Origin: Escherichia phage dhabil
DNA length: 64,000 nt
Sequence record: MN850621.1
Strand: one strand, 5' to 3'
Shown here in pieces: positions 4,541-57,412 of the stretch. A program made the translations under genes and the position numbers. The notes beneath the pieces were generated by a model. That model did not search any database and was not told where the DNA came from. It worked only from the letters and a program-made list of their open reading frames with translations. Numbering within the stretch: the stretch's first letter is position 1; each line of letters begins with the position of its first letter.

Positions 4541-5034
4541 ACACCGAGCTCCTTATAAAGTTCTTCACGGCAGGTTTTAAGGGTTTTACCGGATTCATAA
4601 GCAACACTTTCAGGAACATCGCCGAGAGTTACTGCGGATTGCATTTGACCATGACGTTTAGCCGCATATTCAAAACTTTTTACTAGCTCACGAATACGTT
4701 CTTTTTCTTCATGAAGTGATTGGTTTTCTTCATAGCATGCAGTAACATCTAAGATTGAATTCCACACATCAGAAGGAATAGGCTTGGATAATTTCAACAC
4801 TCTGCTCGGGAAATCATTCCATGGGGCGTAGTATTCAACTTCTGTAATAGCTTTGTCTTTACATTCTGAAATAAAGAATCGAGCTTTACCTTCCAAAGGT
4901 GTTTTACGGCAAGAACCAATTCGGGCCAGATTTTGGAAGAATTTGTCTTTACACTTCATGATATTATTAGCGTTCTCAACATACCATAATATTTTCATAG
5001 TCATTTCCTCAATTTTTATAATCCGTAGGAGCAT
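4537..5034 (-). CDS. Hypothetical protein (165 aa)
   Basis: ORF in operon orientation; no motif recognised. Confidence 0.45.
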
Positions 5035-5165
5035 TATACTCTGCTCCCAAGAGTTTGTAAACTACTTTCCAAAAATACCGTTCATACACATGCTGAACAC
5101 GATTCCAAAACAAAAGCATGCAAAACCAAATCGAACGATATCCCACCCGTCAGCACAAGCCTCGA

Positions 5166-5806: not shown

Positions 5807-6294
5807 TTGGTAATAATCTCGATGATGTCATCACGTGACAGGGAGTTGATAAGAACCGTTTTAGGGTTTTCGCACTGGATTTTATACGTTTCGAACATCA
5901 CGCACAATTCTTCAGCGGTATGGTAAGGGCTCGAAATGCCAAGGCGATTAAACTTATCGCTTAACGGGTCGCAAATCAAATAGAAAGTGATTCCTGAGAT
6001 TTTGACATTAGGTTGGCTGATATTAATGAATACCTCAGCATCATACTTAGAAAGGTTGTTTTGGAGAAACTCAACCATAGAGTTAACAGCTTCAGGCATG
6101 GCTTCACGCTTTTCTTCTGCATAACGGGTAGAGTATTCTTTTTGCTTAATTTTCTTTTTAGCATTTTTAGCTAAAGTAACACGAAGATCGGTTAGGTACC
6201 CTACTGCACGAGAACCTTTAAAAACTTGGATACCGTCAGTAGAGTCACCAAAAGCTTTAACAACCATTTCGTTAGTAATCATTTGCATATTCAT
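5794..6294 (-). CDS. Hypothetical protein (166 aa), in the position of T4 alc
   Basis: ORF directly downstream of an early-promoter cassette; identity with Alc not verifiable from memory. Confidence 0.5.
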   Translation of the reverse strand: MNMQMITNEMVVKAFGDSTDGIQVFKGSRAVGYLTDLRVTLAKNAKKKIKQKEYSTRYAEEKREAMPEAVNSMVEFLQNNLSKYDAEVFINISQPNVKISGITFYLICDPLSDKFNRLGISSPYHTAEELCVMFETYKIQCENPKTVLINSLSRDDIIEIITKCLN

Positions 6295-6324
6295 TTTGTT
6301 TTCTCCTCATTAGTTGGTAAGTCT

Positions 6325-6353
6325 ATACTAACACATCATGAGGAGATGTAAAC
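6325..6353 (-). promoter_or_regulatory. Early-promoter cassette
   Basis: Minus strand GTTTAC - 17 nt - TAGTAT, then leader CCAACTAATGAGGAGAA and ATG of ORF 5794..6294. Confidence 0.5.
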
Positions 6354-13802: not shown

Positions 13803-14042
13803 TCACGCTTTCTTAGCGACTTTCCAGTCGGCTTTAAATTGGTCAACATCAGAATGGTGAATCCAGAAACCAGATGAGCTACCATCTTCATAAAGAGGAC
13901 ACCCATCACACTCATCTTTCCAACCCATTTCACACAAAGCTTGTTCGGCTTTTTCCAGAGCTTCCGGATTGTTACCTTGGATTGTGAAGTACCATTTGCC
14001 TTTAACTTCAGAATCTTTGATTGATTCGCGTTGTAATTTCAT
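13803..14042 (-). CDS. Hypothetical protein (79 aa)
   Basis: First ORF after early-promoter cassette 14069..14098. Confidence 0.5.
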   Translation of the reverse strand: MKLQRESIKDSEVKGKWYFTIQGNNPEALEKAEQALCEMGWKDECDGCPLYEDGSSSGFWIHHSDVDQFKADWKVAKKA

Positions 14043-14068
14043 TTTATTCTCCTCAAGTTGATAAGGCT

Positions 14069-14098
14069 ATAGTATCACTACCATAGCCTTAGGTAAAC
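14069..14098 (-). promoter_or_regulatory. Early-promoter cassette
   Basis: Minus strand GTTTAC - 18 nt - TACTAT - leader ...TCAACTTGAGGAGAAT - ATG. Confidence 0.5.
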
Positions 14099-14100
14099 AC

Positions 14101-14328
14101 TTATTTTTGAATTAAGCCCATATAAAATTCAGCGTCTTCAGCATGCATACCATCGCAATATTCATCAGCCATAAAGCGGGTAAGGTCTTCAAGAGGACCT
14201 TGAACTTCAATTTGCATACTACAGAATTGCGTGTCTTTGATATAAGTCATAGTCAAAGAAGGATAACGATTACGGATAACTTCGTAGGTGTATTCAAAAT
14301 CAACGATATCGATATTAACCTTAGCCAT
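14101..14328 (-). CDS. Hypothetical protein (about 75 aa)
   Basis: ORF track start 14346 lies inside the promoter leader; ATG at 14328 follows GAGGAAAA. Confidence 0.5.
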
Positions 14329-14360
14329 TTTATTTTCCTCACTCATTAGTTGATAGGTCT

Positions 14361-14389
14361 ATAGTATCATGCCTATAGACCTTGTAAAC
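14361..14389 (-). promoter_or_regulatory. Early-promoter cassette
   Basis: Minus strand GTTTAC - 17 nt - TACTAT - AGACCTATCAACTAATGAG; includes 10-bp inverted repeat 14355-14364 / 14373-14382. Confidence 0.55.
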
Positions 14390-14653: not shown

Positions 14654-15037
14654 TTAGGCCTTAAAAGTTTTTTGCAAAAGTTTAATAATTTGGTCAACGT
14701 TCTGTTCGGTAACAATGCAATGTATTTGAGTTACGCCTGCCTTAGTAACAGGTTCGTCAACTTCATCTTGTTCGGCATATTCACGGAAGCAATAGAACTC
14801 ATCTTCATGCAATTCAAAATATTCCTCTAGGGTCCCGTCCGAACTAAAAATCTCACCATTCGCACATTTAATTTTAGTTACAAATTTATCCCCATCTGTG
14901 GTCATCATGTCCTTTACTTCAAACCAACCACCGTTTTCTTGGATAATATCAACCATATCATTATTATTGATAGGGCTGATATTGATAAAAGATTTGATAC
15001 GCTCAGGACGAAGTTCGTATTTTTTACCGATTTCCAT
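14654..15037 (-). CDS. Hypothetical protein (127 aa)
   Basis: First ORF after early-promoter cassette 15067..15095. Confidence 0.5.
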   Translation of the reverse strand: MEIGKKYELRPERIKSFINISPINNNDMVDIIQENGGWFEVKDMMTTDGDKFVTKIKCANGEIFSSDGTLEEYFELHEDEFYCFREYAEQDEVDEPVTKAGVTQIHCIVTEQNVDQIIKLLQKTFKA

Positions 15038-15066
15038 TTTTATTTCCTCATGTAGTTGATAGGTCT

Positions 15067-15095
15067 ATAGTATCATGTTTAAAGGCATTGTAAAC
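15067..15095 (-). promoter_or_regulatory. Early-promoter cassette
   Basis: Minus strand GTTTAC - 17 nt - TACTAT - AGACCTATCAACTACATGAGGAAATAAAA - ATG. Confidence 0.55.
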
Positions 15096-15106
15096 CATTA
15101 AATGCC

Positions 15107-15131
15107 AAAAAGGGAAGACCGAAGTCTTCCC
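15107..15131 (-). terminator. Intrinsic terminator downstream of gene 32
   Basis: Stem GGGAAGAC / GTCTTCCC with CGAA loop, followed in the minus-strand RNA by UUUUU. Confidence 0.6.
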
Positions 15132-17356: not shown

Positions 17357-18304
17357 TTAATAAAAATCAGCTACTGTAGCAGTTAGTTTAGACAAACCTG
17401 ATTTAACGAAATAAGGATAAACTTTAGATTTCGAAGGTTTGTTATACGTATTATATCTTTCAGTAATTAAAGCAACAATATCATCTGGAATAAAGTCCAT
17501 ATCAATTAAGATTTGGTTTTCACAGAAACGTTCATATTGTTCCTCAGTAAGAAGCGTTTTAATTATATCATGGTCATAATAATTAAGAGCAATTGCTTCA
17601 AGTTCCTTGGCACGAGTGCTAGGAGTACGTTCGCCTTCAACCATTGTCAACCAATAATCACCACGAACTTTAATACTTGCAACGTTATCCTTGCGGTCAC
17701 CTTTAATAACCTTAGTCACACAATCAAGCAGAGCATCACCAGATTTTGTTTTGACGAATTTTTTCTGCATTGGAGACCATTGTTTTACACCAGGGAATTT
17801 ATGAAGTTGGGTAAAGTCACCATCAGAAGAACCAATCATAACCGGATGGCCTTTATCTGTAAGGATACGAGTCAATACAGCAATATGGTCATCAGCCTCG
17901 ATTGTATCGATATTCATAACAATATAAGGCATGTTTTGTTCCAGTTCATCCACAATAATATGCATTGCAGTGAATAAGCCTTCCCAATCAAATGGTGATT
18001 CATCACGTGCCTTGGCACGGTTTTTCTTATAATAAGAAGAATAACGACGACGCCAATAACCTGATTTAGAGTTATCAACACAAATGATTAGTTGGTTGTA
18101 ACCTTGTTTTTTAAAGTCTTTAATGTTTTTCTTGATTGAATTCAACACGAGATGTCGAAGCATTGCCGTGGTTACTTTAGGAAATCCAGCGTTTTCACCA
18201 AATTCTTGGAAAGCCGCAGCCATAATGATTTGGCTGAAATCCAGGAGTAAAAATCCATCTTTTTGTCGGTCTTCTTCAGGAAGTAAAAAATCTAAATCGT
18301 TCAT
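17357..18304 (-). CDS. rnh: RNase H (5'-3' exonuclease / flap endonuclease)
   Basis: 315 aa; blocks GYWRRRY...YYKKNRAKARDESPFDWEG and SSDGDFTQLHK resembling T4 RNase H. Confidence 0.9.
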   Translation of the reverse strand: MNDLDFLLPEEDRQKDGFLLLDFSQIIMAAAFQEFGENAGFPKVTTAMLRHLVLNSIKKNIKDFKKQGYNQLIICVDNSKSGYWRRRYSSYYKKNRAKARDESPFDWEGLFTAMHIIVDELEQNMPYIVMNIDTIEADDHIAVLTRILTDKGHPVMIGSSDGDFTQLHKFPGVKQWSPMQKKFVKTKSGDALLDCVTKVIKGDRKDNVASIKVRGDYWLTMVEGERTPSTRAKELEAIALNYYDHDIIKTLLTEEQYERFCENQILIDMDFIPDDIVALITERYNTYNKPSKSKVYPYFVKSGLSKLTATVADFY

Positions 18305-18372
18305 ATGAACCTCTGTCCAATTAGTGTAGAAGGTTATTATATCATGGCCCTGGAAGAAGTAAACACTTTGCT

Positions 18373-21400: not shown

Positions 21401-22311
21401 TCGGTGATGAAACGTCTAACCATTTTTATTCCCAACGCAATAAAGATGGTAATATAGCGTTTAGCATTAATGGTACTGTAATGCCGATAAATGTGAATGC
21501 TTCCGGGTTAATGAATGTGAATGGCGTTGCAACATTCGGTCGTTCGGTTACAGCTCAGGGCGAATTTATATCTTATAGTTCGAACGCATTTAGAGCAATT
21601 AGTGGTAATTATGGATTCTTTATTCGTAATGATAACTCTAATGTCTATTTTATGCTGACCGACTCAGGCGATCAAACAGGTGGCTTTAATGGATTAAGAC
21701 CATTAGCTATTAGTAATACATCTGGCCAGGTTACAATTGGCGAAGGTCTTATTATTGCCAAAGGCGCAACTATTAACTCAGGTGGTTTAACGGTTAACTC
21801 GAGAATTCGTTCTCAAGGTACTAAACCTGCCGACCTTTATTCCAGAAAACCTAATGCAGACAATACCGGCTTTTGGTCTGTTGACGTTAATGACGAAGCC
21901 ACATATAACCAATTCCCTGGTTATTTTAAAATGGTTGAAAAAATTAACGAAGTAACAGGGTTGCCGTATTTGGTTCGTGGTGAAGAAGTTAAATCGCCTG
22001 GTACGTTAACTCAGTTCGGTAACACTCTGAATTCACTTTACCAGGATTGGATTACCTATCCAAATACTGCAGACGGAAGCACTACTCGTTGGACTCGTAC
22101 TTGGCAGCAAAATAAAAATGCTTGGTCTGGATTTGTTCAGGTATTTGATGGCGGTAATCCACCTCAACCGTCTGATATCGGTGCATTACCTTCTGATAAT
22201 GCTTCAATGAGTAACTTGACCATTCGTGATTGGTTGCGTATTGGTAACGTTCGTATAATTCCGGACCCGGTAACTCGTTCTGTTAAATTCGAATGGATTG
22301 ATACACCATAA
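18412..22311 (+). CDS. 34: Long tail fiber proximal subunit gp34
   Basis: 1299 aa; first gene of the plus-strand fiber operon after rnh; contains the characteristic repeated RGxAxIATQxExxxGxDD...ITP motif. Confidence 0.9.
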   Translation: MADILKPAFRATSGLDAAGEKVINVAKADYNVLDDGVNVEFFIDENTIQAYDETRGYKKGFAVIHDQRIWVAQRDIAAPAGTFVPGYWTATRTDPKWITVASPTRQLASGEYIAVDSAASFTTFTLPPNPTDGDTIVIKDIGGRVGYNEIKVQSSSAPGGGNQKIVRFGNQFSETLITKPFSYNMLIFANRLWHFWEAGNEERGIRVEPNTAQFQSQAGDNVLRRYTSGAVIKFTLPKYANQGDMVKTVDIDGLGSKFHLVVETFDASSSLGKPGQHSMEFRTSGDGFFVYNSVEKMWYVWDGDRQTRLRVIRDDVELLANESVIVFGPNNTTPQTINITLPTNVAQGDTIKIALNYLRKAQTVNIKAAVGDKIASSVQLLQFPKRSEYPPDTEWVLNDVLTFNGNLSYTPVIELSYLEDTDINVNYWVVAQNVPTVERVDSKDDLTRARLGVIALASQTQANVDHENNPEKELAITPQTLANRVATESRRGIARIATTAQVNQNTTFAFQDDLIISPKKLNERTATETRRGVAEIATQQETDAGVDDTTIITPKKLQTRQGTESLSGIVKYVSTTGTTPADSRATVGTNVYNKNTTTLVISPKALDQYKADQNNQGAVYLATQAEVNAGATNPGFSNSVVTPETLGARRSTDTNHGLIEIATQQETDAGTDYTRAVTPKTLNDRKATETLTGIARIGTQVEFDAGVLDNVISTPLKIKTRFDNTARTSVSVASGLVESGTLWNHYTLDIREASNTQRGTARLATQTEVNTGTDDKTIITPLKLQAKKATENAEGIIQLATQAEVIDGTVSNKAFSPKHYKYIVQQEKSWEATSARRGYVKLTTGTATWEGDDTNGSVANLAKFEDNGFAISPLQLNTALTHYLPIKGKAFDSDKLDNLDSSQFVRRDIDQIVEGTLTLRKNIRVDGQLATGGTGEFGGSLAANSTFTIRNTGTATRIVFEKGPQTGTNPVQSMSIRVWGNQYGGGSDTSRSTVFEVGDETSNHFYSQRNKDGNIAFSINGTVMPINVNASGLMNVNGVATFGRSVTAQGEFISYSSNAFRAISGNYGFFIRNDNSNVYFMLTDSGDQTGGFNGLRPLAISNTSGQVTIGEGLIIAKGATINSGGLTVNSRIRSQGTKPADLYSRKPNADNTGFWSVDVNDEATYNQFPGYFKMVEKINEVTGLPYLVRGEEVKSPGTLTQFGNTLNSLYQDWITYPNTADGSTTRWTRTWQQNKNAWSGFVQVFDGGNPPQPSDIGALPSDNASMSNLTIRDWLRIGNVRIIPDPVTRSVKFEWIDTP
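19880..21050 (+). repeat. Array of about nine diverged 35-40-aa coding repeats inside gene 34
   Basis: Repeated peptide units such as RRGIARIATTAQVNQNT...ISPKKL and RRGVAEIATQQETDAGVDDTTIITPKKL; in-frame, degenerate. Confidence 0.6.
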
Positions 22312-22319
22312 GAGGTAAT

Positions 22320-24160: not shown

Positions 24161-24168
24161 GAGGCATT

Positions 24169-29546: not shown

Positions 29547-29818
29547 AAATTGGAGGTATACATCATTAGATAACGGTGTATATCTTCATACCCTTCATTA
29601 AATTGCTCAATAAGAGTATCACGTTCATCTTCAGTTAAAGACTTAAAGAGTTTATTAAAAGATAGGCCATTAAGTTCCTTTCCATGTTCATTACGAATAC
29701 CCAACTCATTCAAAAAGGCAATAAACTCATCACGACGTTGCATGATGTCTTCACAATCCGTTTTAATCAAAATAGAAACAATAGTAGCAATTTCGGAAAC
29801 GATTTCAATTTTAGTCAT
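29543..29818 (-). CDS. asiA: Anti-sigma70 factor AsiA
   Basis: 91 aa; blocks ANFIAFLNE.G and DTLIEQFNEGYEDIHRYLMMYT match T4 AsiA as I recall it; converges tail-to-tail on t with a 4-nt overlap. Confidence 0.85.
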   Translation of the reverse strand: MTKIEIVSEIATIVSILIKTDCEDIMQRRDEFIAFLNELGIRNEHGKELNGLSFNKLFKSLTEDERDTLIEQFNEGYEDIHRYLMMYTSNF

Positions 29819-29876
29819 TTTAATTTACTCAAGTATTCAATAGGACATTCATTTATTCAGTAAGAATATTGTAACA

Positions 29877-30041
29877 CTATTCTTCTGGGTTGTACACATG
29901 ATTTTTCATCTGTACAACATATTCCTGATACATTTCTTCGATAGGTTCCAGGAACTTAAAATCGGCTCCTAGGAATTCCTCAAAGCAAGCCTGCTCGCGT
30001 GTACGCTGGCCAGTAATGGTATTCTCTAAGTTATGACTCAT
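29877..30041 (-). CDS. Small acidic protein (54 aa), not in ORF track
   Basis: Translated by hand: MSHNLENTITGQRTREQACFEEFLGADFKFLEPIEEMYQEYVVQMKNHVYNPEE. Confidence 0.3.
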   Translation of the reverse strand: MSHNLENTITGQRTREQACFEEFLGADFKFLEPIEEMYQEYVVQMKNHVYNPEE

Positions 30042-31256: not shown

Positions 31257-31573
31257 CCTTTAACACGTTGCCATAAAGTTTTCTGTTGAGCTTTATTTAC
31301 ACCAATTGAACGAATAACCGGTTGTGATTCCTGGTATTCTTTGTAGTCGGCTTTATAGACTTCATAAGCGGCCGGAACAAAGGTGCTGATGGCAGCCATA
31401 AAGTTCTTACGAATTCCCATAGAAGCTTCAGAACCACCACGGATGATTAGGTATTTACCTGCTTTAATCTTAACAATAGTTCCAAGATAAGCGCCATGGT
31501 ACCAAATATCCCAACCTTCTTGAGTAGGTTCTGCACAACGACGAAGTTCATTAACAATATTCAGCTTGTTCAT
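31244..31573 (-). CDS. Hypothetical protein (109 aa)
   Basis: ORF in operon orientation. Confidence 0.45.
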   Translation of the reverse strand: MNKLNIVNELRRCAEPTQEGWDIWYHGAYLGTIVKIKAGKYLIIRGGSEASMGIRKNFMAAISTFVPAAYEVYKADYKEYQESQPVIRSIGVNKAQQKTLWQRVKGWFK

Positions 31574-31591
31574 AATAATTTCCTCAGCCAG

Positions 31592-32224
31592 TTAAATTGC
31601 GTTGGTTACGGTTTTGATAACTTCAGATGATACGTTTTGGAAGTCGATATAAGTATTCTTACCACCAGTCTTAATCTTAACATCAAGACTCAAGGAAGTA
31701 AACACTTGTTTTTCTTTATCGGTCATATTATAACCGAAAATACGCATCATTCCGTCACGACGGACTTCGATTTGACGAATACCGTTGGTACGTTTAGCGA
31801 ATCGAACTTCAAGATTGCTACGGTTTTCAGCGATTTCACGAATCTCGATACGGTCTTCTAACAAAGATTTAACTTCATCAGCCAGTACCACCATTTCAGG
31901 AGTAACACCACGTGAACTGCGAGTTTTACGTTTTTCCAACATCTCTGGAGCATTTTCAGAAGCGAACAGGTCAGCAGCTTTTTGAACTAGGTCCATTGCT
32001 TCACCTGTAGCCACCAGTCCATCACCAGATTTTTCGATGAATCCTTTCTTAATCAATACACCAATGTTAGAGTTAACTACCGCAGCACTAAATTGTTCAC
32101 TCAGGGCTTCGCGGACTTCGCCTGAAGTGATGAAGTTATTCTTGATGATATGTACTAAGATAGAAGCCGTTTTTTCATTCAGGACGTCTTCAGAAGCTTT
32201 GATGATATAAGTAATTTTAGACAT
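31592..32224 (-). CDS. motA: Middle-transcription activator MotA
   Basis: 210 aa; N-terminus MSKITYIIKAS.DVLNEKTA...NSNIGVLIKKG..EKSGDGL and C-terminal RTNGIR...MRIFGY closely resemble T4 MotA. Confidence 0.8.
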   Translation of the reverse strand: MSKITYIIKASEDVLNEKTASILVHIIKNNFITSGEVREALSEQFSAAVVNSNIGVLIKKGFIEKSGDGLVATGEAMDLVQKAADLFASENAPEMLEKRKTRSSRGVTPEMVVLADEVKSLLEDRIEIREIAENRSNLEVRFAKRTNGIRQIEVRRDGMMRIFGYNMTDKEKQVFTSLSLDVKIKTGGKNTYIDFQNVSSEVIKTVTNAI

Positions 32225-32258
32225 TTTAATCTCCGATAACCATTTATTTGATAGGTCT

Positions 32259-32287
32259 ATAGTATCATGTTTAAAGCAGAAGTAAAC
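32259..32287 (-). promoter_or_regulatory. Early-promoter cassette for motA
   Basis: Minus strand GTTTAC - 17 nt - TACTAT - AGACCTATCAAATAAATGG; near-identical copy of cassette 32584..32612. Confidence 0.55.
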
Positions 32288-32295
32288 TTTATTTT

Positions 32296-32315
32296 GAGCT
32301 CTTTTCCAAGAGCTC
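32296..32315 (-). other. RNA hairpin downstream of ORF 32329..32544
   Basis: 8-bp inverted repeat GAGCTCTT / AAGAGCTC with 4-nt loop. Confidence 0.35.
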
Positions 32316-32328: not shown

Positions 32329-32544
32329 TTAGATTGATAGGTCTTTAATCTCGGCGATTAAAGCGGCTTTTCCTTCACGAAGTTTTTCCAGTTCACGACC
32401 ATTAGAGCCGCGAACTACTAAGGAATTTATCTCCACTTCCAGCCAATTTAGTTTTTCAACTAGTTCTTTACGTTTAGCATTCATACCAGGTTTAACTTTA
32501 CCGAAACGGATGGTAGCGTTTTGGGTATTTTTCATCTTATTCAT
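32329..32544 (-). CDS. Hypothetical basic protein (71 aa)
   Basis: ORF flanked by two near-identical early-promoter cassettes. Confidence 0.5.
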   Translation of the reverse strand: MNKMKNTQNATIRFGKVKPGMNAKRKELVEKLNWLEVEINSLVVRGSNGRELEKLREGKAALIAEIKDLSI

Positions 32545-32583
32545 TTTTGTATCTCCATTTCACTCTGTTGTTTTGATAGGTCT

Positions 32584-32612
32584 ATAGTATCATGTTTAAA
32601 GCAGATGTAAAT
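32584..32612 (-). promoter_or_regulatory. Early-promoter cassette (ATTTAC -35 variant)
   Basis: Minus strand ATTTAC - 17 nt - TACTAT - AGACCTATCAAAACAACAG. Confidence 0.45.
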
Positions 32613-32630
32613 ACTTTTTTGCACTAAACC

Positions 32631-32652
32631 AAAAAAGGAACCCGAAGGTTCC
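32631..32652 (-). terminator. Intrinsic terminator after the gene 52 / small-peptide pair
   Basis: GGAACC-CGAA-GGTTCC flanked by A run (5' on plus strand) and T run, so terminator-like in both directions. Confidence 0.55.
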
Positions 32653-32757
32653 TTACTTTTTAAAGTGTGCTGCTATTAAACCTATAGCTAAGCCCGTCGC
32701 CAGGCCTAGGATAACAGCAAAGATACAGAGTAACAAGAACTCGACTCCAAGGCTCAT
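32653..32757 (-). CDS. Small hydrophobic peptide (34 aa), not in ORF track
   Basis: MSLGVEFLLLCIFAVILGLATGLAIGLIAAHFKK; ATG overlaps the gene 52 stop (ATGA), terminator directly downstream. Confidence 0.4.
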   Translation of the reverse strand: MSLGVEFLLLCIFAVILGLATGLAIGLIAAHFKK

Positions 32758-34519: not shown

Positions 34520-34969
34520 TTAGTAAGCCTGCAGAACGAATTTGAAGTTATCGGCCAACATACGGTTCATTTCTTCCAGTGTCTGGAGGTCTGAACTATG
34601 GTTGCGAGTGAAAGCCATAGCGATTTGACCTTTACCGAAGCCTGTAGTCAGTGGTTTCATTTTAGAAGCCGGCACATAAAGAACTTCATACACAACACCA
34701 TTCACTGCCATAGTGCGAGCTGATTGTGAACGTTTCTTACGAATGTTAGCTACGATACCATCAAGACCTTGAGCTGAACGTTGGTTGCCGACATAAAAGC
34801 GTGCAGCTACGACACGAGAATCTGCTTCACCTTTAACAAAGAAGTAGAAGCCTGGCTGGGCTGAGATTTCTTTAGAAGGCTTACCATTTTGGTATTCGCC
34901 ATTCTTAACATAAGCAACAGTAGTAGCACCAGCAGACAGAACGTTACCGCGAGTCATATAAGTATTCAT
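34520..34969 (-). CDS. ndd: Nucleoid disruption protein Ndd
   Basis: 149 aa; C-terminal block [22 protein letters not shown]...[19 protein letters not shown] resembles T4 Ndd as I recall it; position consistent. Confidence 0.65.
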
Positions 34970-35018
34970 ATCAATTTCCTCAGTAGATTAATGTTTTGTT
35001 ATCCAGTCAACGAGAACC

Positions 35019-35047
35019 ATTATAACATGATTCTCGAGGTTGTAAAC
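35019..35047 (-). promoter_or_regulatory. Early promoter (canonical GTTTAC-N17-TATAAT) for ndd
   Basis: Minus strand GTTTAC - 17 nt - TATAAT, about 50 nt upstream of the ndd ATG. Confidence 0.6.
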
Positions 35048-35661: not shown

Positions 35662-35778
35662 TCAGAAGTTAAAGAATACACGTACATGGTCAATCATAAA
35701 AACTATTGGGAAAATGCTCAATACAACCAATAACACAAACATGTTCCAAATTGCTTTAAGTAAGTTTTTCATAATCAT
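35662..35778 (-). CDS. Small membrane peptide (38 aa), not in ORF track
   Basis: MIMKNLLKAIWNMFVLLVVLSIFPIVFMIDHVRVFFNF; first ORF after cassette 35799..35827. Confidence 0.35.
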   Translation of the reverse strand: MIMKNLLKAIWNMFVLLVVLSIFPIVFMIDHVRVFFNF

Positions 35779-35798
35779 CTCCATTAGTTGATAGGTCT

Positions 35799-35827
35799 AT
35801 AATATCATGTCTAATGGAGATGTAAAC
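35799..35827 (-). promoter_or_regulatory. Early-promoter cassette
   Basis: Minus strand GTTTAC - 17 nt - TATTAT - AGACCTATCAACTAATGGAG; 10-bp inverted repeat 35778-35787 / 35811-35820. Confidence 0.55.
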
Positions 35828-35882
35828 ATTGATTGTTATCATTATTACTGGAAATAATATCACTCATATTAAGCGCCAGAAC

Positions 35883-36074
35883 CTACTCAAACCCTGCGCT
35901 CCCAATTTCAAGGTTAGAGCGGTTGTCAAAGATTTTGCACCGACCTTTAACCTGGCTGGATGCGTAGAACTCCGCAGTTTCTTGAACATCAAAAGCATAC
36001 AACCTTGTTTCTAAATCGCGATAACGTGGTTCGCCGTTAAGTTCAAACCAAATCATAATAGTTACTGGGATCAT
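35883..36074 (-). CDS. Hypothetical protein (63 aa)
   Basis: ORF downstream of promoter-like element 36107..36135. Confidence 0.4.
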   Translation of the reverse strand: MIPVTIMIWFELNGEPRYRDLETRLYAFDVQETAEFYASSQVKGRCKIFDNRSNLEIGSAGFE

Positions 36075-36106
36075 TTTCGGGTTCCTTGTTTGTTGGTGTA
36101 TGAGTA

Positions 36107-36135
36107 CTATAACATGCTAAATCTGAGATGTAAAC
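36107..36135 (-). promoter_or_regulatory. Early-promoter-like element
   Basis: Minus strand GTTTAC - 17 nt - TTATAG; weaker -10. Confidence 0.35.
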
Positions 36136-36225: not shown

Positions 36226-36492
36226 TCAAAACACCACCTCTTTTATCTCAATCAATCCCCTGTGCAATGCGGTGCGAAGGTCATAAAGGATATCTATACC
36301 GTCAACATTATCCAGTTTACCGTCGATAAGTTTTTGTAAATCTTTTTTTGACGCTATCAAAGGGCGGAGAAATTTACATTCAGAAAGAGATAACTCTGTA
36401 GTAACATCATCACCTTCACCTGATGCATCATACATAGCGGCGACAACCATACCCGTAACTTTGTGTTTAGCGTAATATAATTTGATATCCAT
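36226..36492 (-). CDS. Hypothetical protein (about 88 aa)
   Basis: ORF track start 36552 lies in the promoter leader; ATG at 36492 follows the GAGGAG of the cassette. Confidence 0.5.
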   Translation of the reverse strand: MDIKLYYAKHKVTGMVVAAMYDASGEGDDVTTELSLSECKFLRPLIASKKDLQKLIDGKLDNVDGIDILYDLRTALHRGLIEIKEVVF

Positions 36493-36520
36493 TTTGTTCT
36501 CCTCATTAGTTGATAGGAAG

Positions 36521-36550
36521 ATAGTAACACCATCCATGGCGTATGTAAAC
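36521..36550 (-). promoter_or_regulatory. Early-promoter cassette
   Basis: Minus strand GTTTAC - 18 nt - TACTAT - CTTCCTATCAACTAATGAGGAGAA - ATG. Confidence 0.5.
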
Positions 36551-40995: not shown

Positions 40996-41305
40996 TTTTA
41001 ACTACCTCATGTTGAACATATTCTCTGGTAGAACCTAGTTCAGCCAGAATTCTTCTCATAGAACCCATTGTACTTTTGTGCTCTCTGTGGCGATACAATA
41101 TCTCTAGAACCTTTTCCTGGACAACGGGAGAGAGCGCCTGGTTATCTTTAATCTTTAAGGCAATAGATTTTACAGCCTTAAGGTATTCTAGTCCCTTACC
41201 GCTTGTAATCACTACTCCTTCATCTTTACAGTTACGAATAGCGGTTTCCATAAAGGATAAAGCCAAGTTGTCAGTGTTCACTATACTATTATCTTGCATA
41301 ATCAT
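40982..41305 (-). CDS. Hypothetical protein (107 aa)
   Basis: ORF in operon orientation. Confidence 0.45.
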   Translation of the reverse strand: MIMQDNSIVNTDNLALSFMETAIRNCKDEGVVITSGKGLEYLKAVKSIALKIKDNQALSPVVQEKVLEILYRHREHKSTMGSMRRILAELGSTREYVQHEVVKNDKL

Positions 41306-41356
41306 ATTCTCACCTCTTAGAGAATCATATCACACTTTTAATCTGTTGTAAACCCC

Positions 41357-41377
41357 GAAAAGGGCCCGTAGGCCCTT
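41357..41377 (-). terminator. Intrinsic terminator
   Basis: AAGGGCC-CGTA-GGCCCTT, followed in the minus-strand RNA by UUUU. Confidence 0.5.
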
Positions 41378-44342: not shown

Positions 44343-44553
44343 TGTAAGTTTCCTTCCAGAAGTCGGTGCCTTCAGCAGTGATTTCACGGAACACTGCATA
44401 GATAGGGTTTTTATCGCCTTGATTTTCGTATACATAAACCGACGATAAATGAGAAAACGTATCAGAATGTTCCTTTTGAACCACGATTAAATCAGGGTTG
44501 AACAGAACGTCTTCAAATTCTTCACGAGTCGAGTTCACAGTAACTTTAGCCAT
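44335..44553 (-). CDS. Hypothetical protein (72 aa)
   Basis: First ORF after promoter-like cassette 44584..44613. Confidence 0.45.
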   Translation of the reverse strand: MAKVTVNSTREEFEDVLFNPDLIVVQKEHSDTFSHLSSVYVYENQGDKNPIYAVFREITAEGTDFWKETYNA

Positions 44554-44583
44554 TTTATTTTCCTCTCATTTGTTGATAAGGTA

Positions 44584-44613
44584 ATAGTATCACTACCCTA
44601 CCGTATTGTATAC
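44584..44613 (-). promoter_or_regulatory. Early-promoter-like cassette (GTATAC -35 variant)
   Basis: Minus strand GTATAC - 18 nt - TACTAT - TACCTTATCAACAAATGAGAGGAA - ATG. Confidence 0.35.
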
Positions 44614-44626: not shown

Positions 44627-45190
44627 TTATGCACGATGAATATTAGCATACTCGACAATAAAGCTTTCAGGAACCACCTTAAAAGTTCCAAGGAACACGA
44701 TGTTATAAAGCTTAACGCCTTCTTCAACCCACTGGTCTGTGATGTAACCGGACATGCTGGTGGTTTCATAAGTACCGAAAAGTTCGTCATCGTATTCAAA
44801 CGGCTTAGGGGAAACGAAAAAGACACCTTGACCTAATTCCCATTTAAAATCAACACCCACATGAGACTGGTCGATAGTTTCAACGTCTTGAGCTACTACG
44901 CCACGGATATCATTGCTTTCACATACATACCCATCATGGGATTCAACTTCTTCAACCACTGGGGTATGAACAAGTTCAGGAACTATTGGACGCGCTTTCC
45001 AGCCCTTAGAAATCAAAGTGACATAGCGTTCTTTAACATAACCTACAGTTGAAGAAACGAAACCACTGGAACGAAATGCCTGGACTTTAACAAGACCACG
45101 AGAGAAATTGAATCCAATAATAATACATTTTTTACCAGCAACTTTAGATTTAGAATCTTCGGAAACCGATACGATATCACCAATTTTCAT
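44627..45190 (-). CDS. Hypothetical protein (187 aa), paralog of 45268..45816
   Basis: Shares C-terminal block GYITDQWVEEGVKLYNIVFLGTFKVVPES with the next ORF. Confidence 0.5.
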   Translation of the reverse strand: MKIGDIVSVSEDSKSKVAGKKCIIIGFNFSRGLVKVQAFRSSGFVSSTVGYVKERYVTLISKGWKARPIVPELVHTPVVEEVESHDGYVCESNDIRGVVAQDVETIDQSHVGVDFKWELGQGVFFVSPKPFEYDDELFGTYETTSMSGYITDQWVEEGVKLYNIVFLGTFKVVPESFIVEYANIHRA

Positions 45191-45236
45191 AATATTACCT
45201 TTTGTTTAGGAATTAGGTTTATTCTCCATAAGAGCC

Positions 45237-45265
45237 ATTATAACATGGCTCTCGATAAAGTAAAC
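45237..45265 (-). promoter_or_regulatory. Early promoter (canonical GTTTAC-N17-TATAAT)
   Basis: Minus strand GTTTAC - 17 nt - TATAAT, about 45 nt upstream of ORF 44627..45190. Confidence 0.55.
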
Positions 45266-45818: not shown

Positions 45819-46322
45819 TTATCTCATTTCAATAAAATCTACGAGTTCAGCATGGGATTTGCGGAACATTACTTGGCGGTCACCAATGACTACCTCATCT
45901 TCAGGTATTTCGTAAACAGCAAGATAGAATCCTTTAGAAGATAATTCTTCGCGCTCTTCACGAGTGAACCAGCGCATCATATCATACTCGCTGGCAAAAG
46001 CAAAATGGTAGAGGTTAACAAACCAACCCGGAATATAATCGTCACAGTCTTCATAATCAGGTCGTTTCCACTTAGTTCTAATGGCTTTATTAGAATTTTC
46101 TACCAACAACTTATCTTGACTTGGTAGTGGGATATTTTTATTAATGCTATGATGATGTCTAAAAATAGGTCTGTCCAAACCTACTTCCAATAACCAGCCT
46201 TCACTCCATGAGTCTGTTGTACTTCTATACGGGGTCATTTGAGTACAGAGGTCTCGTCGTATTGTGATAGCGTTTCCATCATCTAAGATACTGAACGATG
46301 ACTCAACTCGATAAATTTTCAT
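45819..46322 (-). CDS. Hypothetical protein (167 aa)
   Basis: First ORF after cassette 46350..46378. Confidence 0.5.
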   Translation of the reverse strand: MKIYRVESSFSILDDGNAITIRRDLCTQMTPYRSTTDSWSEGWLLEVGLDRPIFRHHHSINKNIPLPSQDKLLVENSNKAIRTKWKRPDYEDCDDYIPGWFVNLYHFAFASEYDMMRWFTREEREELSSKGFYLAVYEIPEDEVVIGDRQVMFRKSHAELVDFIEMR

Positions 46323-46349
46323 TTTGTTCTCCTCATGTTGATAGGGTAG

Positions 46350-46378
46350 ATAATATCATGTCATGAGGAGAAGTAAAC
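46350..46378 (-). promoter_or_regulatory. Early-promoter cassette
   Basis: Minus strand GTTTAC - 17 nt - TATTAT - CTACCCTATCAACATGAGGAGAA - ATG; 11-bp inverted repeat 46327-46337 / 46362-46372. Confidence 0.55.
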
Positions 46379-48929: not shown

Positions 48930-49679
48930 TTAACCTCTAATCAGTGAAAAAATTGAAGCATTCAATGGAAGACCTTTTTTCAACTTCAATTTGTCAATAA
49001 AAGAAAGGTGTTCTAAACGCTCCAGACCTTGAATAATTTTATCATACATATCGTAACGCGTTTCTGCTTCAGACAATTTAAACTTGACACGCCAATCAGG
49101 CCCACCAATTAAAGATTTAAGACCTTTTTCCATAGTACCGATTGAAGCGTTAGAACCGTGGATACGGGCCTTAACTGCGATAACAGAAGGAGTCTTATCA
49201 GTAGCTCCTGATTTAATAAGGTCTTTAAGACGTTTTTCACGTTTTTTAAGACCTCTTTGGGTATCTTTTATATTTTTAACGATTTTACGGATTTTATAAT
49301 AGTTATCAGGAGTAACTTTAAAACTATTAGGCATTTTAGAACTACCTGAAATACGAACTGCTAAACGAGTCTGAGCACGTTTCAGTTCATCAAGGGACAA
49401 ATCGGCACGTAAGCTGTTATACTTAACTTTAACTGGGATTACATTACCCTCAATATAGCCGATATCGTTGTTAAAACGTTCAAATGAAATCTTGTCATTA
49501 ACTGAATTTTCATCAAAGTACTCGCCCGAATAAGCGCACACTTTTTGTTCGAGAAGTCTACGAACATACTTACTAGACAGATTGAAGTCCTTACCGCGTT
49601 TACAAGCAGAAGCTTTGGTGTGTTTGCGGCGGTTGTAAACCTTTAACTCAAATTCATCGTTAGTTTTAATAGTAGGCAT
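48930..49679 (-). CDS. Hypothetical basic protein (249 aa), in the position of T4 srd
   Basis: ORF after cassette 49720..49748; Srd identity is positional only. Confidence 0.5.
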   Translation of the reverse strand: MPTIKTNDEFELKVYNRRKHTKASACKRGKDFNLSSKYVRRLLEQKVCAYSGEYFDENSVNDKISFERFNNDIGYIEGNVIPVKVKYNSLRADLSLDELKRAQTRLAVRISGSSKMPNSFKVTPDNYYKIRKIVKNIKDTQRGLKKREKRLKDLIKSGATDKTPSVIAVKARIHGSNASIGTMEKGLKSLIGGPDWRVKFKLSEAETRYDMYDKIIQGLERLEHLSFIDKLKLKKGLPLNASIFSLIRG

Positions 49680-49719
49680 GATATTTTTCTCATCTTACGG
49701 ACGATTAGTTGATAGGTCT

Positions 49720-49748
49720 ATAGTATCATGTTGCTTAATAAAGTAAAC
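49720..49748 (-). promoter_or_regulatory. Early-promoter cassette
   Basis: Minus strand GTTTAC - 17 nt - TACTAT - AGACCTATCAACTAATCG. Confidence 0.5.
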
Positions 49749-49817: not shown

Positions 49818-50432
49818 TCAGTAAGAAAGAACGGAAAGATTCCATAATGTATAATCTTGCCATCCACAAACTCTCTCAATAGAGTCTACGCGTAGCGTAG
49901 TTCCCGCAGGGAACATCATCTCATCTTCATCGTTTACTAATTGCAAGTTTGAAGTACGAGTTATTTCTGGATATGGCCCGTTGAACTCTTCGGGAGGAGC
50001 GCCACAAATCATTTTAAAGATTGCTTCCTGGTAATCAAATGCAAAAGGTGCATCATTAATACAGAAAATATTTTTGGTTCCGTAAAAATTATATGAAGCA
50101 AAGTTACGGGCCACCTTAAAATCTTTAGAGAAGCTCATTACTCTGTCAAATTCAATTGTGGCACCAACACATCCTACCGATTCGAGGTATTTCAAAGTTT
50201 TCTTAGAAATTCCACGGTACAGTTTGTCAGGCACTACAGAAGTTAGATTCTTACGAATGATTTTGTTCAAAGTTTCTTGGATAGAATCAGGTTTATTTTC
50301 CATGCACTGCCAGAGGACACTCTGTTCTAAATCAGAGTACTGCCCGTCTATTTCACCCTGAATGTTTTCACGGAAATCATCACATTTAACATTGTCATAG
50401 AACTCTGATAATTTATGATTTGGATATAACAT
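49818..50432 (-). CDS. modA: ADP-ribosyltransferase, ModA-like
   Basis: 204 aa; R (LYRG), SFS and EDE blocks in the order of the R-S-EXE ART signature; paralog of next ORF; symbol assigned by order. Confidence 0.6.
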   Translation of the reverse strand: MLYPNHKLSEFYDNVKCDDFRENIQGEIDGQYSDLEQSVLWQCMENKPDSIQETLNKIIRKNLTSVVPDKLYRGISKKTLKYLESVGCVGATIEFDRVMSFSKDFKVARNFASYNFYGTKNIFCINDAPFAFDYQEAIFKMICGAPPEEFNGPYPEITRTSNLQLVNDEDEMMFPAGTTLRVDSIERVCGWQDYTLWNLSVLSY

Positions 50433-50457
50433 ATTATTCTCCTCAGTTGATAGAAAG

Positions 50458-50487
50458 ATAGTACCACAAGCATCCTTGCCTGTAAAC
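50458..50487 (-). promoter_or_regulatory. Early-promoter cassette
   Basis: Minus strand GTTTAC - 18 nt - TACTAT - CTTTCTATCAACTGAGGAGAATAAT - ATG. Confidence 0.5.
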
Positions 50488-51056
50488 TAAAAATCTAACA
50501 TTTTTAAATGAATTATTTTGTACTCGATTTCGTATGGGTCTCTTTTGATAGTTTCGATTTCCACAATCTCGAACCGTGATAGACTAGAGACCATGAACTC
50601 ACATTCAGTTTCGACCATATCATAGAGGTCTATCCGGGTTTCATCTATTTCAAGTTCGTCCACATTCCCTGCAAGAACAAGGTCGATAGCATGATTGTAG
50701 TAGTCGAAAATGAACGGTGCATTCCTGAGACTTAAGATGGTTTTAGTTCCATATTCCCACGCCCCTGCGAACTGACGAGCCTGAGAGTATTGTGTACTAA
50801 AAGAAGTAACACGGCCGGGAGACCACTGGCATCCGACAGAAAGAACTTCAAGTTGCTCAAGTTCTCTTGGAGTAATCCCACGATAAAGCTCTACCGGAAC
50901 GACCGAAGTAACATGCTTACGAACTAGTTTGTCTAGGTCATAATGGAAGTTAGGGTCTTTTTTGGCATCCAGACATTTCTCTAACAACGCTTGTTCAGAT
51001 TTTGAAAATTTAGAATTGATTCGGTCTTGATAAAGACATTTTTGTTCGATGTTCAT
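50487..51056 (-). CDS. modB: ADP-ribosyltransferase, ModB-like
   Basis: 189 aa; LYRG, SFS and ECE blocks (R-S-EXE); paralog of 49818..50432. Confidence 0.6.
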   Translation of the reverse strand: MNIEQKCLYQDRINSKFSKSEQALLEKCLDAKKDPNFHYDLDKLVRKHVTSVVPVELYRGITPRELEQLEVLSVGCQWSPGRVTSFSTQYSQARQFAGAWEYGTKTILSLRNAPFIFDYYNHAIDLVLAGNVDELEIDETRIDLYDMVETECEFMVSSLSRFEIVEIETIKRDPYEIEYKIIHLKMLDF

Positions 51057-51080
51057 ATGACCTCCAGTGATTTAGAGGTC

Positions 51081-51109
51081 ATTATAACATGAAGGGAGGA
51101 GGTGTAAAC
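51081..51109 (-). promoter_or_regulatory. Early promoter (canonical GTTTAC-N17-TATAAT)
   Basis: Minus strand GTTTAC - 17 nt - TATAAT; leader contains 7-bp inverted repeat 51058-51064 / 51075-51081 covering the Shine-Dalgarno. Confidence 0.55.
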
Positions 51110-52689: not shown

Positions 52690-52895
52690 AGGAAACCTCG
52701 TTTAAATTCAACTTTATCAATATCATCAGTCTCGTGACGGATTTCGGCATTAAATTCGACAGAACCGTCTTCATGCATCATAAATGAATGGACAATAACT
52801 TCGGTATACCAAGGAGTATAGAAGTACTTTTTCAATACGTGATTAGCGATAATTTCATCCAAAGTTTTATTTGGTTTAATCCAACGATTTAACAT
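52686..52895 (-). CDS. Hypothetical protein (69 aa)
   Basis: ORF in operon orientation. Confidence 0.4.
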   Translation of the reverse strand: MLNRWIKPNKTLDEIIANHVLKKYFYTPWYTEVIVHSFMMHEDGSVEFNAEIRHETDDIDKVEFKRGFL

Positions 52896-52962
52896 AGTGT
52901 TCTCCTCTATAAGATAGGTCTATCTTAACTCGGTCCAATAAGAAAGTAAACCATTAAAAACG

Positions 52963-52984
52963 AAAAAAGGAACCCGAAGGTTCC
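52963..52984 (-). terminator. Intrinsic terminator after soc
   Basis: GGAACC-CGAA-GGTTCC, followed in the minus-strand RNA by UUUUUU. Confidence 0.6.
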
Positions 52985-52990
52985 TTATAA

Positions 52991-55639: not shown

Positions 55640-55640
55640 A

Positions 55641-56081: not shown

Positions 56082-56367
56082 CTGTCACCTCTTTAACAAT
56101 ATTTTTGTTATCGAAATTAGCATCACAGTACAGAACATAGTTATACTGCATAACACCACTAGAAGCCAATTGGTCAGATACTTCTTTAACCATATCAGGA
56201 CGGTCGCGTTTAGTGATGTTCATGATATCAGCGTAAATCTGATGTTCAACTGACTCTTGGTCTGCAGTCATAGACCATTCACAAAGGTCTTTATCCAATC
56301 CGGCAGTTACCGGAGCCGTGCCACATGATGCTACTGTAAGGATTGCTGCGATTAATAACTTTTTCAT
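56074..56367 (-). CDS. sp: Spackle periplasmic protein (superinfection exclusion)
   Basis: 97 aa; signal peptide then DKDLCEWSMTADQ and GVMQYNYVLYCD.NF.NKNI blocks matching T4 Sp (gene 61.3) as I recall it. Confidence 0.75.
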   Translation of the reverse strand: MKKLLIAAILTVASCGTAPVTAGLDKDLCEWSMTADQESVEHQIYADIMNITKRDRPDMVKEVSDQLASSGVMQYNYVLYCDANFDNKNIVKEVTGE

Positions 56368-56396
56368 TTTTAACTCCTCATTAGTTGATAAGGCCT

Positions 56397-56426
56397 ATAG
56401 TATCACTACCATAGACCGTTGTAAAC
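56397..56426 (-). promoter_or_regulatory. Early-promoter cassette for sp
   Basis: Minus strand GTTTAC - 18 nt - TACTAT - AGGCCTTATCAACTAATGAGGAG. Confidence 0.5.
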
Positions 56427-57012: not shown

Positions 57013-57330
57013 TTAGATTTCCTCACAGAAGGCCCATTCAGCGTGATAAACCGTAGCGCCTTTGGTATCATTTAAACAAACCACATCTACCGGAGCAATT
57101 ACACGATAAAGACGAGGTTCTCCTCCCACCGAACGAGCAGCTCGTCCAGCATAAATCTTAGCCAAACCAATGTCCTCAGTAAAGAACACACGATTTAGGT
57201 TTTTCTTACGACCAGTTTCAGACAGAACTCCTGTTTCCTCAGGAGGACAAAGCATATTACCAATATTAGCAACACTACAACTTCCATGATAATACACTTT
57301 ATATTCTGCTTTACAGTCGATGGTTTTCAT
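57013..57330 (-). CDS. Hypothetical protein (about 105 aa)
   Basis: ORF track start 57342 is a TTG; ATG at 57330 follows GGAG; first ORF after cassette 57355..57383. Confidence 0.5.
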   Translation of the reverse strand: MKTIDCKAEYKVYYHGSCSVANIGNMLCPPEETGVLSETGRKKNLNRVFFTEDIGLAKIYAGRAARSVGGEPRLYRVIAPVDVVCLNDTKGATVYHAEWAFCEEI

Positions 57331-57354
57331 TTTGTTCTCCAAGTTGATAGGTCT

Positions 57355-57383
57355 ATAGTATCATGCCTACAGGAGAAGTAAAC
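57355..57383 (-). promoter_or_regulatory. Early-promoter cassette
   Basis: Minus strand GTTTAC - 17 nt - TACTAT - AGACCTATCAACTTGGAGAACAAA - ATG. Confidence 0.55.
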
Positions 57384-57392
57384 CCTTAAAAC

Positions 57393-57412
57393 AAAAAAGG
57401 AGCCGAAGCTCC
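57393..57412 (-). terminator. Intrinsic terminator after gene 41
   Basis: GGAGC-CGAA-GCTCC, followed in the minus-strand RNA by UUUUUU. Confidence 0.6.

Follow-up and report, generated by a model that had tools for sequence, protein, structure and literature searches.

Positions 14,329 to 14,389 of a stretch of Escherichia phage dhabil DNA (MN850621.1) hold one copy of a repeated early promoter in which a block of roughly 20 nt downstream of the -10 appears as conserved as the promoter hexamers themselves. Why should this block be so uniform, and does it have a second function? We addressed this question in the window, the whole 64,000-nt stretch of DNA that was analysed, and conclude that the repeats are probably T4-type early promoter cassettes of the PeSL kind, whose copies serve as homology patches for gene shuffling and would be homogenised within a lineage. 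The phenomenon is known already from PeSLs and the T4 internal-protein locus (Repoila 1994; Arbiol 2010; Comeau 2014), and no new kind of element is involved. Judged by its sequence, the window is that of a Dhakavirus, i.e., a JS98-like T4-type coliphage: over ~3 kb around 14329-14389, it is 98.8% identical to dhaeg, 98.2% to CLB_P2, 95.6% to JS10, and 95.2% to JS98, and about 60 Dhakavirus records reach at least 90%. Its gene order, read off the annotation of relatives, follows the T4 early region, with ligase, rIII, cd, alc, nrd, td, frd, 32, rnh, tail fibres 34-38, asiA, motA, 52, ndd, rIIB/A, 39, motB, dda, srd, mod, 61, 41, and uvsX.

The promoter family is robust. Each of the 18 promoter spans listed in the initial annotation (14 copies and four variants) was found on the minus strand where it had been placed, and a looser scan added six early-type promoters that had been overlooked, at 5033-5062, 18336-18364, 29868-29897, 31674-31703, 41324-41353, and 52922-52951, for a total of 24 (Table 1). 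The pattern GTTTAC-N16-19-TAYTAT is strongly in excess of shuffled sequence: it has 11 exact matches, every one of them on the minus strand, where dinucleotide shuffles predict 0.17 (a 65-fold excess), while AGACCTATCAAC with at most two mismatches is found 14 times against 4.9 expected, a number that none of 100 shuffles reaches. These strict-pattern and block tests rule out the reading that chance or base composition alone produced these matches in AT-rich intergenic DNA, the probability of which is negligible. A loose scan (one -35 mismatch, any TAnnAT) does give seven plus-strand matches, which is within the shuffle range, but the sites lie in front of start codons and have orthologous copies in many phages. 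In all 18 listed copies, the first gene-start ATG is 25-50 nt past the -10, the proximity originally described, and a GAGG/GGAG Shine-Dalgarno (SD) sequence precedes this ATG at the 3' end of the copy.

Several features identify the type of promoter. The sites are intergenic and combine a GTTTAC-like -35, a TGn extended -10, a TAnnnT -10, and a preceding A-rich UP-like tract (e.g., AAAATAAGT); a generic sigma-70 scan of 31.5-37 kb independently called the cassettes with a TG extended -10 and TTTACA as the -35. Elements (UP, -35 GTTTAC, TGn, -10), strand, and downstream genes all match those of T4 early promoters (Hinton 2010, PMC2988021). All 24 sites are on the minus strand, which is the early-gene strand, and coordinate mapping onto annotated relatives and T4 places behind them counterparts of motA, alc, srd, modA/modB, ndd, motB, asiA, rnh, frd.1-3, and sp. 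Promoter cassettes cluster among small variable genes at 14.0-15.1, 32.2-36.6, 44.5-46.4, 49.7-51.1, and 56.4-57.4 kb, and the promoter scan of the window found none in the tail-fibre block at 19-29 kb. Boxes, strand, and early-gene counterparts thus fit the original T4 early-promoter reading, and we infer from sequence both the activity of these putative T4-type early promoters and the position of their +1; the literature that we searched yielded no transcript 5'-end dataset for T4 or Dhakavirus. The sites fall into class I (14 sites), with TA[C/T/G]TAT as the -10, and class II or other early-type promoters (10 sites), with TATAAT, TATAGT, TAAGAT, and others.

Table 1. Early-type promoter cassettes of the window and the exchangeable ORF (events A to D are described in the text)
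Feature	Coordinates	Strand	Remarks
Class I, frd.3 counterpart	14328..14389	-	GTTTAC-17-TACTAT-AGACCTATCAAC-SD-ATG; 10-bp stem AGGTCTATAG/CTATAGACCT encloses -10; z=-3.99
Class I, frd.1 counterpart	14042..14098	-	12-bp stem AAGGCTATGGTA/TACTATAGCCTT around -10, sequence unlike that of copy 14361; z=-3.61
Class I, frd.2 counterpart	15037..15120	-	Intrinsic terminator GGGAAGACTTCGGTCTTCCCTTTTT upstream
Class I, alc counterpart	6294..6353	-	TAGTAT -10; block TACCAAC; anti-SD spacer TCTCCTCAT pairs with ATGAGGAGA; z=-4.30
Class I, motA	32224..32310	-	Hairpin AGAGCTCTTGGAAAAGAGCTC upstream; downstream partner in events A and D
Class I, ATTTAC -35	32544..32654	-	Terminator AAGGAACCTTCGGGTTCCTTTTTT upstream; upstream partner in events A and D; would drive ORF 32329-32544
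Class I, TATTAT	35772..35827	-	SD sequestered by 12-bp stem CATCTCCATTAG/CTAATGGAGATG; event B partner
Class I, discriminator CTTCC	36492..36550	-	Event C site
Class I, GTATAC -35, discriminator TACCT	44553..44613	-	Stem with G.U around -10; z=-2.92
Class I, TATTAT, motB.2 counterpart	46322..46378	-	SD sequestered by 11-bp stem TTCTCCTCATG/CATGAGGAGAA; z=-5.56
Class I, srd	49679..49748	-	Promoter-to-block unlike T4 srd; distal leader conserved
Class I, ADP-ribosyltransferase gene (mod) downstream	50432..50487	-	Discriminator CTTTC
Class I, sp (spackle)	56367..56426	-	Stem GGTCTATGGTA/TACTATAGGCC, two G.U pairs
Class I	57330..57410	-	Terminator GGAGCTTCGGCTCCTTTTTT upstream; closely resembles T4 denV promoter
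Class II, ndd, TGtTATAAT	34969..35047	-	Without TATCAAC block; stem CGAGAATC/GGTTCTCG around -10
Class II	36074..36135	-	-10 TTATAG in the initial annotation, TATAGT in the sigma-70 scan; event B upstream partner
Class II, motB	45190..45265	-	Stem AGAGCC/GGCTCT around -10; T4 has GGGACC/GGTCCC
Class II, mod gene	51056..51109	-	Spacer-SD pairing ACCTCC/GGAGGT
Class II, newly found	5004..5062	-	Stem TGGGAGC/GCTCCTA around -10
Class II, rnh, newly found	18304..18364	-	Looser scan
Early-type, asiA, newly found	29818..29897	-	GTGTAC/TACAAT; stem AAGAAT/ATTCTT around -10
Early-type, TAAGAT, newly found	31573..31703	-	Stem AGTCTTG/TAAGACT around -10; long leader
Early-type, TATGAT, newly found	41305..41375	-	Terminator GGGCCTACGGGCCCTTTT upstream
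Early-type, TAAGAT-AGACCTATC, newly found	52895..52987	-	Second copy of terminator AAGGAACCTTCGGGTTCCTTTTTT upstream
Swappable 71-aa ORF	32329..32544	-	Between two cassettes; replaced in MN04, absent from UGJNEcP3

We propose that a cassette consists of an A-rich tract, GTTTAC, a 17-18-nt spacer ending in TGn, the -10, and a 25-50-nt leader with a strong GAGG/GGAG SD and the ATG, and that host sigma-70 RNA polymerase would, to judge from sequence and gene context, fire these cassettes immediately after infection. The -10-anchored consensus is cATGA-TACTAT-AGACCTATCAAC. In a single promoter subfamily (TGnTAYTAT-N4/5-CTATCAAC), AGACCTATCAAC would correspond to the discriminator together with the region where transcription probably starts. 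The shared core of ~35-45 bp would offer the phage's own homologous recombination a portable homology patch, by which small genes may be deleted, inserted, or swapped as ready-to-express modules, an outcome that is observed among relatives (see below).

The block is indeed tightly conserved. Its CTATCAAC core, 5-12 nt past the -10, contains ~1.1-2.0 bits per column (0.8 in one column), which is comparable with the 1.4-1.7 bits of the -10 hexamer, while the first three discriminator bases are weaker (0.4-1.0 bits, -10-anchored); AGACCTATCAA is common to 8 of the 14 class I copies. This conservation is less unexpected than was initially thought: an identical 18-mer is found at T4 denV, and a review already credits T4 early promoters with further consensus regions (PMC2988021). 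The latter fits the alternative that the block is purely promoter-intrinsic—a discriminator and initially transcribed sequence tuned to the slightly off-consensus TAYTAT and preserved because initiation or promoter escape is under selection, with recombination as an incidental by-product—which we entertain tentatively. It would account for the presence of the block in all 14 TA[C/T/G]TAT promoters, as TATCAA(C) or, in one of them, TACCAAC, and in none of the 10 others (Fisher P=5e-7), an association that is partly circular because a cassette inherited as a unit carries both elements. T4 is similar in this respect: of nine TACTAT promoters recovered from 103 kb of early sequence, seven have CTATCAA, with acaa (four), tacc (two), or agac (one) as discriminator, and in six of these seven the full CTATCAAC is present; the TATAAT/TATAGT promoters recovered there are without CTATCAA. 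This alternative is also consistent with the motA promoter, where TACTAT...CTATCAA has been kept in T4 and in this phage despite diverged spacer, discriminator, and mid-leader, and with substitutions between orthologous cassettes, which by small counts amount to 0% in the -35, 0.6% in the -10, 1.6% in TATCAAC, ~4% in the discriminator and 5' spacer, and 2.1% in the flanks. The difference between TATCAAC and the neighbouring discriminator and 5' spacer (3/182 vs. 19/457) rests on counts too small for significance. Because there are fewer substitutions in TATCAAC and the block is kept at motA in both genera, some direct selection may act on it.

However, the T4 counterparts of the sp, motB.2, frd.3, and srd promoters work without the block, which is less uniform in T4 than in this phage, where all 14 class I copies have it. 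Since several T4 orthologues lack it, lineage-specific homogenisation is a better explanation than a separate second function. The dominant variant also differs by lineage, being AGAC + TAATGAGGAG in this phage and ACAA + CTACTGATAC in T4. When the srd leaders of T4 and this phage are compared, the distal part (cgtccgtaagatg.gagaaaaatat) is conserved and everything from the -35 through the block is different, as if the promoter module had been exchanged. In addition, a leader of ~25 nt that has to accommodate the start region, SD, A-rich spacer, and ATG leaves little room for neutral variation. Our preferred explanation is that recombination between copies would homogenise the cassettes in each lineage, which would best account for the tight conservation of the block. 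A promoter-intrinsic role is compatible with this rather than exclusive of it, and it is plausible that direct selection and homogenisation by inter-copy recombination both contribute. Separately, a partial copy had been reported inside ORF 32329..32544. Only a 12-nt block (11/12 matches) is found there, at 32333-32344, and it may be a chance match; its reading as a decayed full cassette is not supported, the ungapped identity upstream being 10/29, a value reached by 26% of genome positions.

That cassettes take part in gene shuffling is best seen in relatives. We aligned the window with four of these, with dhaeg compared over the first 32 kb, and UGJNEcP3 and MN04 over 29-64 kb (~92-93% identity). 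The latter comparison revealed 17 distinct events, most of which are not cassette-bounded. Four have both edges in cassettes, and 11 of the 34 indel edges are in cassettes, which represent 6% of the compared sequence (P=3e-6 for uniform placement; a gene-boundary null would be less extreme). The hybrid junctions are stronger evidence than this enrichment. Three junctions (events A-C) could be read at nucleotide level, and the genome with a single copy carries a hybrid cassette. In event A, ORF 32329-32544 is missing from UGJNEcP3, whose hybrid matches cassette 32584 in its terminator and flank, and cassette 32259 in its leader and gene, the crossover having occurred somewhere inside a 40-bp identical core. 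In event B, positions 35825-36124 of the window are missing from UGJNEcP3 and MN04, with a crossover in TACATCTC, where cassettes 36107 and 35799 have the edge of their -35. In event C, cassette 36521 is single in the window, but in UGJNEcP3 it is present as one full copy and one partial copy without the -35; the two have a 34-bp core in common and flank an additional ORF of 228 nt. Finally, in event D, MN04 has an unrelated 75-aa ORF between cassettes 32584 and 32259; the window ORF, the unrelated MN04 ORF, and the empty UGJNEcP3 site therefore define three alleles at one site. Other edges are found at the motB promoter, the leader of which holds the edge of a replacement present in three relatives, and at the sp cassette, where a replacement in UGJNEcP3 starts 9 nt upstream of the -35. 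In dhaeg, neither of the two indels in the first 32 kb is cassette-bounded: in one, the tandem paralogues frd.2a and frd.2b have crossed over near their 5' ends, at AAAAATGGAAA, and in the other a small ORF was lost between overlapping start and stop codons.

These junctions bear directly on the second functions that had been proposed for the block. The idea of a recombination linker is upheld by the hybrid cassettes at indel junctions, while nothing that we found pointed to a block that is bound by a protein or directs processing. If the block were the binding site of a phage DNA-binding protein—an early-promoter shut-off factor or a helper of cassette recombination—it would, by overlapping the +1, be an effective spot for a repressor. 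The mechanism of T4 early-promoter shut-off is still open in the review cited above (PMC2988021), and the authors of the PeSL study speculated on a specific protein acting at their elements (PMC2839356). Nevertheless, we consider such a site very unlikely. We looked for dyad symmetry of the block itself and saw none, the 10 other early-type promoters do not have the block, a candidate protein was not found, and homology-driven recombination suffices for the junctions, where crossovers map to intervals of 8-40 bp and to no fixed point. That the block acts in the RNA, as a 5'-terminal signal of early mRNAs for, e.g., stability, processing, or enhancement of translation, is hardly more credible, and we deem it quite unlikely. 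This reading would benefit from the fact that every class I mRNA would start with AUCAAC if +1 were the A of TATCAAC, and from the GGAG-type SDs in the leaders, as T4 RegB cleaves within the SD of motA and regB mRNAs (PMC2988021). However, a search of Rfam returned zero family matches anywhere in the window, leaders are unstructured, and both class II early promoters and T4 orthologues are without the block. Moreover, the RegB sites named in that review are either an SD (motA, regB) or an AU-rich sequence (comC-alpha), unlike the block. A further idea, which we view as unlikely, is that the coupling of TAYTAT and CTATCAAC in T4 and Dhakavirus (this core is also covered by a 30-nt match in RB69) denotes a functionally distinct subclass in which the block is read by a factor; rather than being just a start region made uniform by homogenisation, it could then determine Alt-dependent stimulation or be the target of early-transcription shut-off.

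The inverted repeats that overlap the promoters had been overlooked. They come in two arrangements. In the first, the -10 and discriminator are paired to the 3' half of the spacer (14361, 14069, 56397, 44584, 45237, 35019, 5033, 31674, and 29868); in copy 14361, for example, the spacer contains AGGTCTATAG, and its reverse complement CTATAGACCT extends across the -10 and discriminator. In the second, an anti-SD spacer (TCTCC...) pairs with the SD (6325, 35799, 46350, 51081, and 57355). Across the 24 sites, the highest-scoring stem that a spacer can form with the region downstream of it averages 14.67, against 12.35 +/- 0.49 for permuted pairings (P=5e-5). Read-through RNA, taken to begin at the -35 and to end shortly after the ATG, has a mean folding z of -1.6 relative to shuffles, and 10 of 24 cassettes have a z below -2 (P ~8e-4), so that a clearly significant stem is present in only these 10. 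Stem sequences vary among copies while the stem is retained (e.g., AGGTCTAT/ATAGACCT vs. AAGGCTAT/ATAGCCTT), and the motB stem differs between the two genera. Five cassettes have a separate upstream terminator and one more an upstream hairpin; the five terminator-preceded cassettes tend to be without an overlapping stem (mean z -0.19 vs. -1.99), a trend with P=0.08.

What might these stems do? About half of the cassettes have an inverted repeat with its 5' arm in the spacer and its 3' arm in the discriminator or SD, and most others have a separate upstream hairpin or terminator. A transcript from the cassette's own promoter would not have the 5' arm, leaving its leader unstructured, and own-promoter leaders indeed fold with ~0 kcal/mol in most cases. 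A read-through transcript from upstream would form the stem-loop, which might provide insulation, attenuation, or 3'-end stabilisation, and in a subset would hide the ribosome-binding site. Most stems are not followed by a U-run and are therefore not canonical intrinsic terminators, which makes terminator activity doubtful on sequence grounds. To distinguish RNA structure from a DNA cruciform, we compared the two strands: sense RNA folds modestly better than antisense RNA (z -1.66 vs. -1.11, P=0.023; P=0.10 for energies), a suggestive rather than decisive difference that lends weak support to an RNA-level role of the stems in read-through transcripts. In T4, the ribosome-binding sites of e, 49, soc, and I-TevI are masked by a hairpin in long transcripts and free in transcripts from internal promoters, these being cases of late promoters and early read-through. 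Promoters 6325, 35799, 46350, 51081, and 57355 similarly lie inside a hairpin with the SD as its 3' arm, so that only their own transcripts would have a free SD; unlike in the T4 cases, both Dhakavirus transcripts would be early, and the effect is predicted from folding.

The closest known systems are the PeSLs, defined in RB49/phi1 as an AT-rich tract, early promoter, stem-loop, SD, and ATG, with five alternative places for the stem-loop, among them the interval between the boxes and a position overlapping the -10 (Arbiol et al. 2010, PMC2839356). They cluster in hyperplastic regions, flank ORF indels, and give rise to mini-circles by crossovers between the -10 and the SD or ATG (PMC2839356). 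PeSLs were subsequently extended to T4/PST, with the consensus TTTACW-N17-TAYWAT, and to KVP40/nt-1 (Comeau et al. 2014, PMC4122927). Similar elements in T-even internal-protein loci are credited to Repoila et al. 1994, whose T4 repeats are described as a ~70-bp early promoter with an overlapping inverted repeat (as cited in PMC2839356), while for JS98 only "PeSL-like sequences" near gene 43 are mentioned, in passing (PMC2839356). In the window we find intergenic sigma-70-type promoters with an AT-rich tract, a stem-loop (not in every copy), and an SD and ATG, which are clustered and coincide with indel junctions. As in RB49/phi1, T4/PST, and KVP40/nt-1, these are many-copy intergenic cassettes among small non-essential early genes, with a stem-loop upstream of, between, or over the boxes, and with indels or ORF replacements whose crossovers fall inside the cassette, including between the -10 and the SD/ATG. 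The copies in the window fit the T4/PST consensus (PMC4122927). There are also differences. RB49/phi1 PeSLs have near-perfect TTGACA/TATAAT boxes and G-run/C-run stems, whereas the window has T4-type boxes and AT-richer stems that often use the -10 or an anti-SD spacer as an arm. Moreover, mini-circles and reporter activity have been demonstrated for the former.

The Dhakavirus family is a well-populated set of PeSL-type cassettes, with stem-loop functions that we propose from predicted folding. It extends gene shuffling by PeSL "mobile regulatory cassettes" to a fourth group of T4-type phages, with unusually clean junctions that include one three-allele site. Dhakaviruses are used in phage-therapy work, and our findings provide a practical rule by which early promoters, and places where indels are likely to concentrate, can be annotated in their genomes. 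The TAYTAT+CTATCAAC subclass is a defined target for promoter mutagenesis.

A T4 counterpart is at ipII-denV, where GTTTAC-ATCTCCTGTAGGTATGA-TACTAT-AGACCTATCAAC-TACAGGAGA...ATG agrees with the Dhakavirus cassettes in its entire 18-mer core and likewise has an inverted repeat that joins spacer and SD. The GenBank record for this site (X04567.1) annotates the repeat, named C/C' and imperfect, as a stem-loop and possible terminator that holds the -10 in its loop. Stems enclosing the -10 as they do here are also present at the T4 e-ipIII and ipIII-ipII junctions. With a 58-nt cassette query, T4 is matched in the single ipII-denV place, while 8-11 places are matched in the listed Dhakavirus genomes, and in this phage the family is spread over the whole early region; most more distant T4-like records have one or two, and the match in a short RB69 record is 30 nt long. 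The exact 18-mer was found in 37 IMG/VR stretches, with 6-9 copies in each of the six contigs of complete-genome size (~155-172 kb) and 1-2 in smaller ones.

A junction that falls at start codons separates the window phage from its relatives at frd.2, which is a single gene here vs tandem paralogues (frd.2a and frd.2b) in dhaeg, JS98 and JS10. The deletion junction lies within AAAAATGGAAA, a sequence common to the start codons of both paralogues, and the promoter of one copy should therefore now drive the other copy. The motB promoter cassette lies at the edge of a rearrangement. Where the window has a segment of approximately 258 bp, three relatives (CLB_P2, MN04 and UGJNEcP3) instead have ~242–257 bp that do not align with it, and one edge of this replacement is within the leader of that cassette.

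The region upstream of srd differs in another way, since the distal leader is kept in both T4 and the window phage, whereas the part from the −35 element to +12 differs. The promoter is of the TATAGT class in T4, but of the TACTAT class in the window phage, where it is followed by the TATCAAC-containing leader block. This pattern suggests that the promoter module alone was replaced. Repetition extends to the terminator half of the cassette as well, as the two near-identical copies of the terminator AAGGAACCTTCGGGTTCCTTTTTT (97% over 30 nt) are each directly upstream of an early promoter.

Several other length differences were seen. A small ORF of ~60 codons, missing in dhaeg, has edges formed by overlapping stop/start signals (TAATG ... 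CTATGAATAAT), and no promoter cassette is involved in this indel between the window and dhaeg. Relatives carry insertions at two sites, neither of which is cassette-associated; the smaller is inside the CDS directly downstream of rIIA, the rIIB position according to coordinate mapping onto CLB_P2. UGJNEcP3, unlike the window phage, has a homing-endonuclease gene adjoining dCTPase (the gene 56 counterpart). Homing endonucleases are a well-known route to indel formation, distinct from the cassettes, here in the same region. Finally, three diverged direct repeats of ~95 nt (66–74% identity) are within the proximal long-tail-fibre gene, the gene 34 counterpart, and are probably repeated structural motifs.

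Coordinates of the features in the window and, for some, in a related phage
Feature	Window	Relative
frd.2 deletion junction	15023-15042	dhaeg 22021-22411
Replacement at motB promoter	44956-45215	
srd upstream region	49679-49748	
Terminator, copy 1	32635-32654	
Terminator, copy 2	52958-52987	
Small ORF	3126-3312	missing in dhaeg
Insertion site, 196-548 bp	55633-55642	
Insertion site, 66 bp	38391-38399	
Homing-endonuclease gene	absent (53926-53978)	UGJNEcP3 23672-24328
Tail-fibre gene repeats	19963-20540
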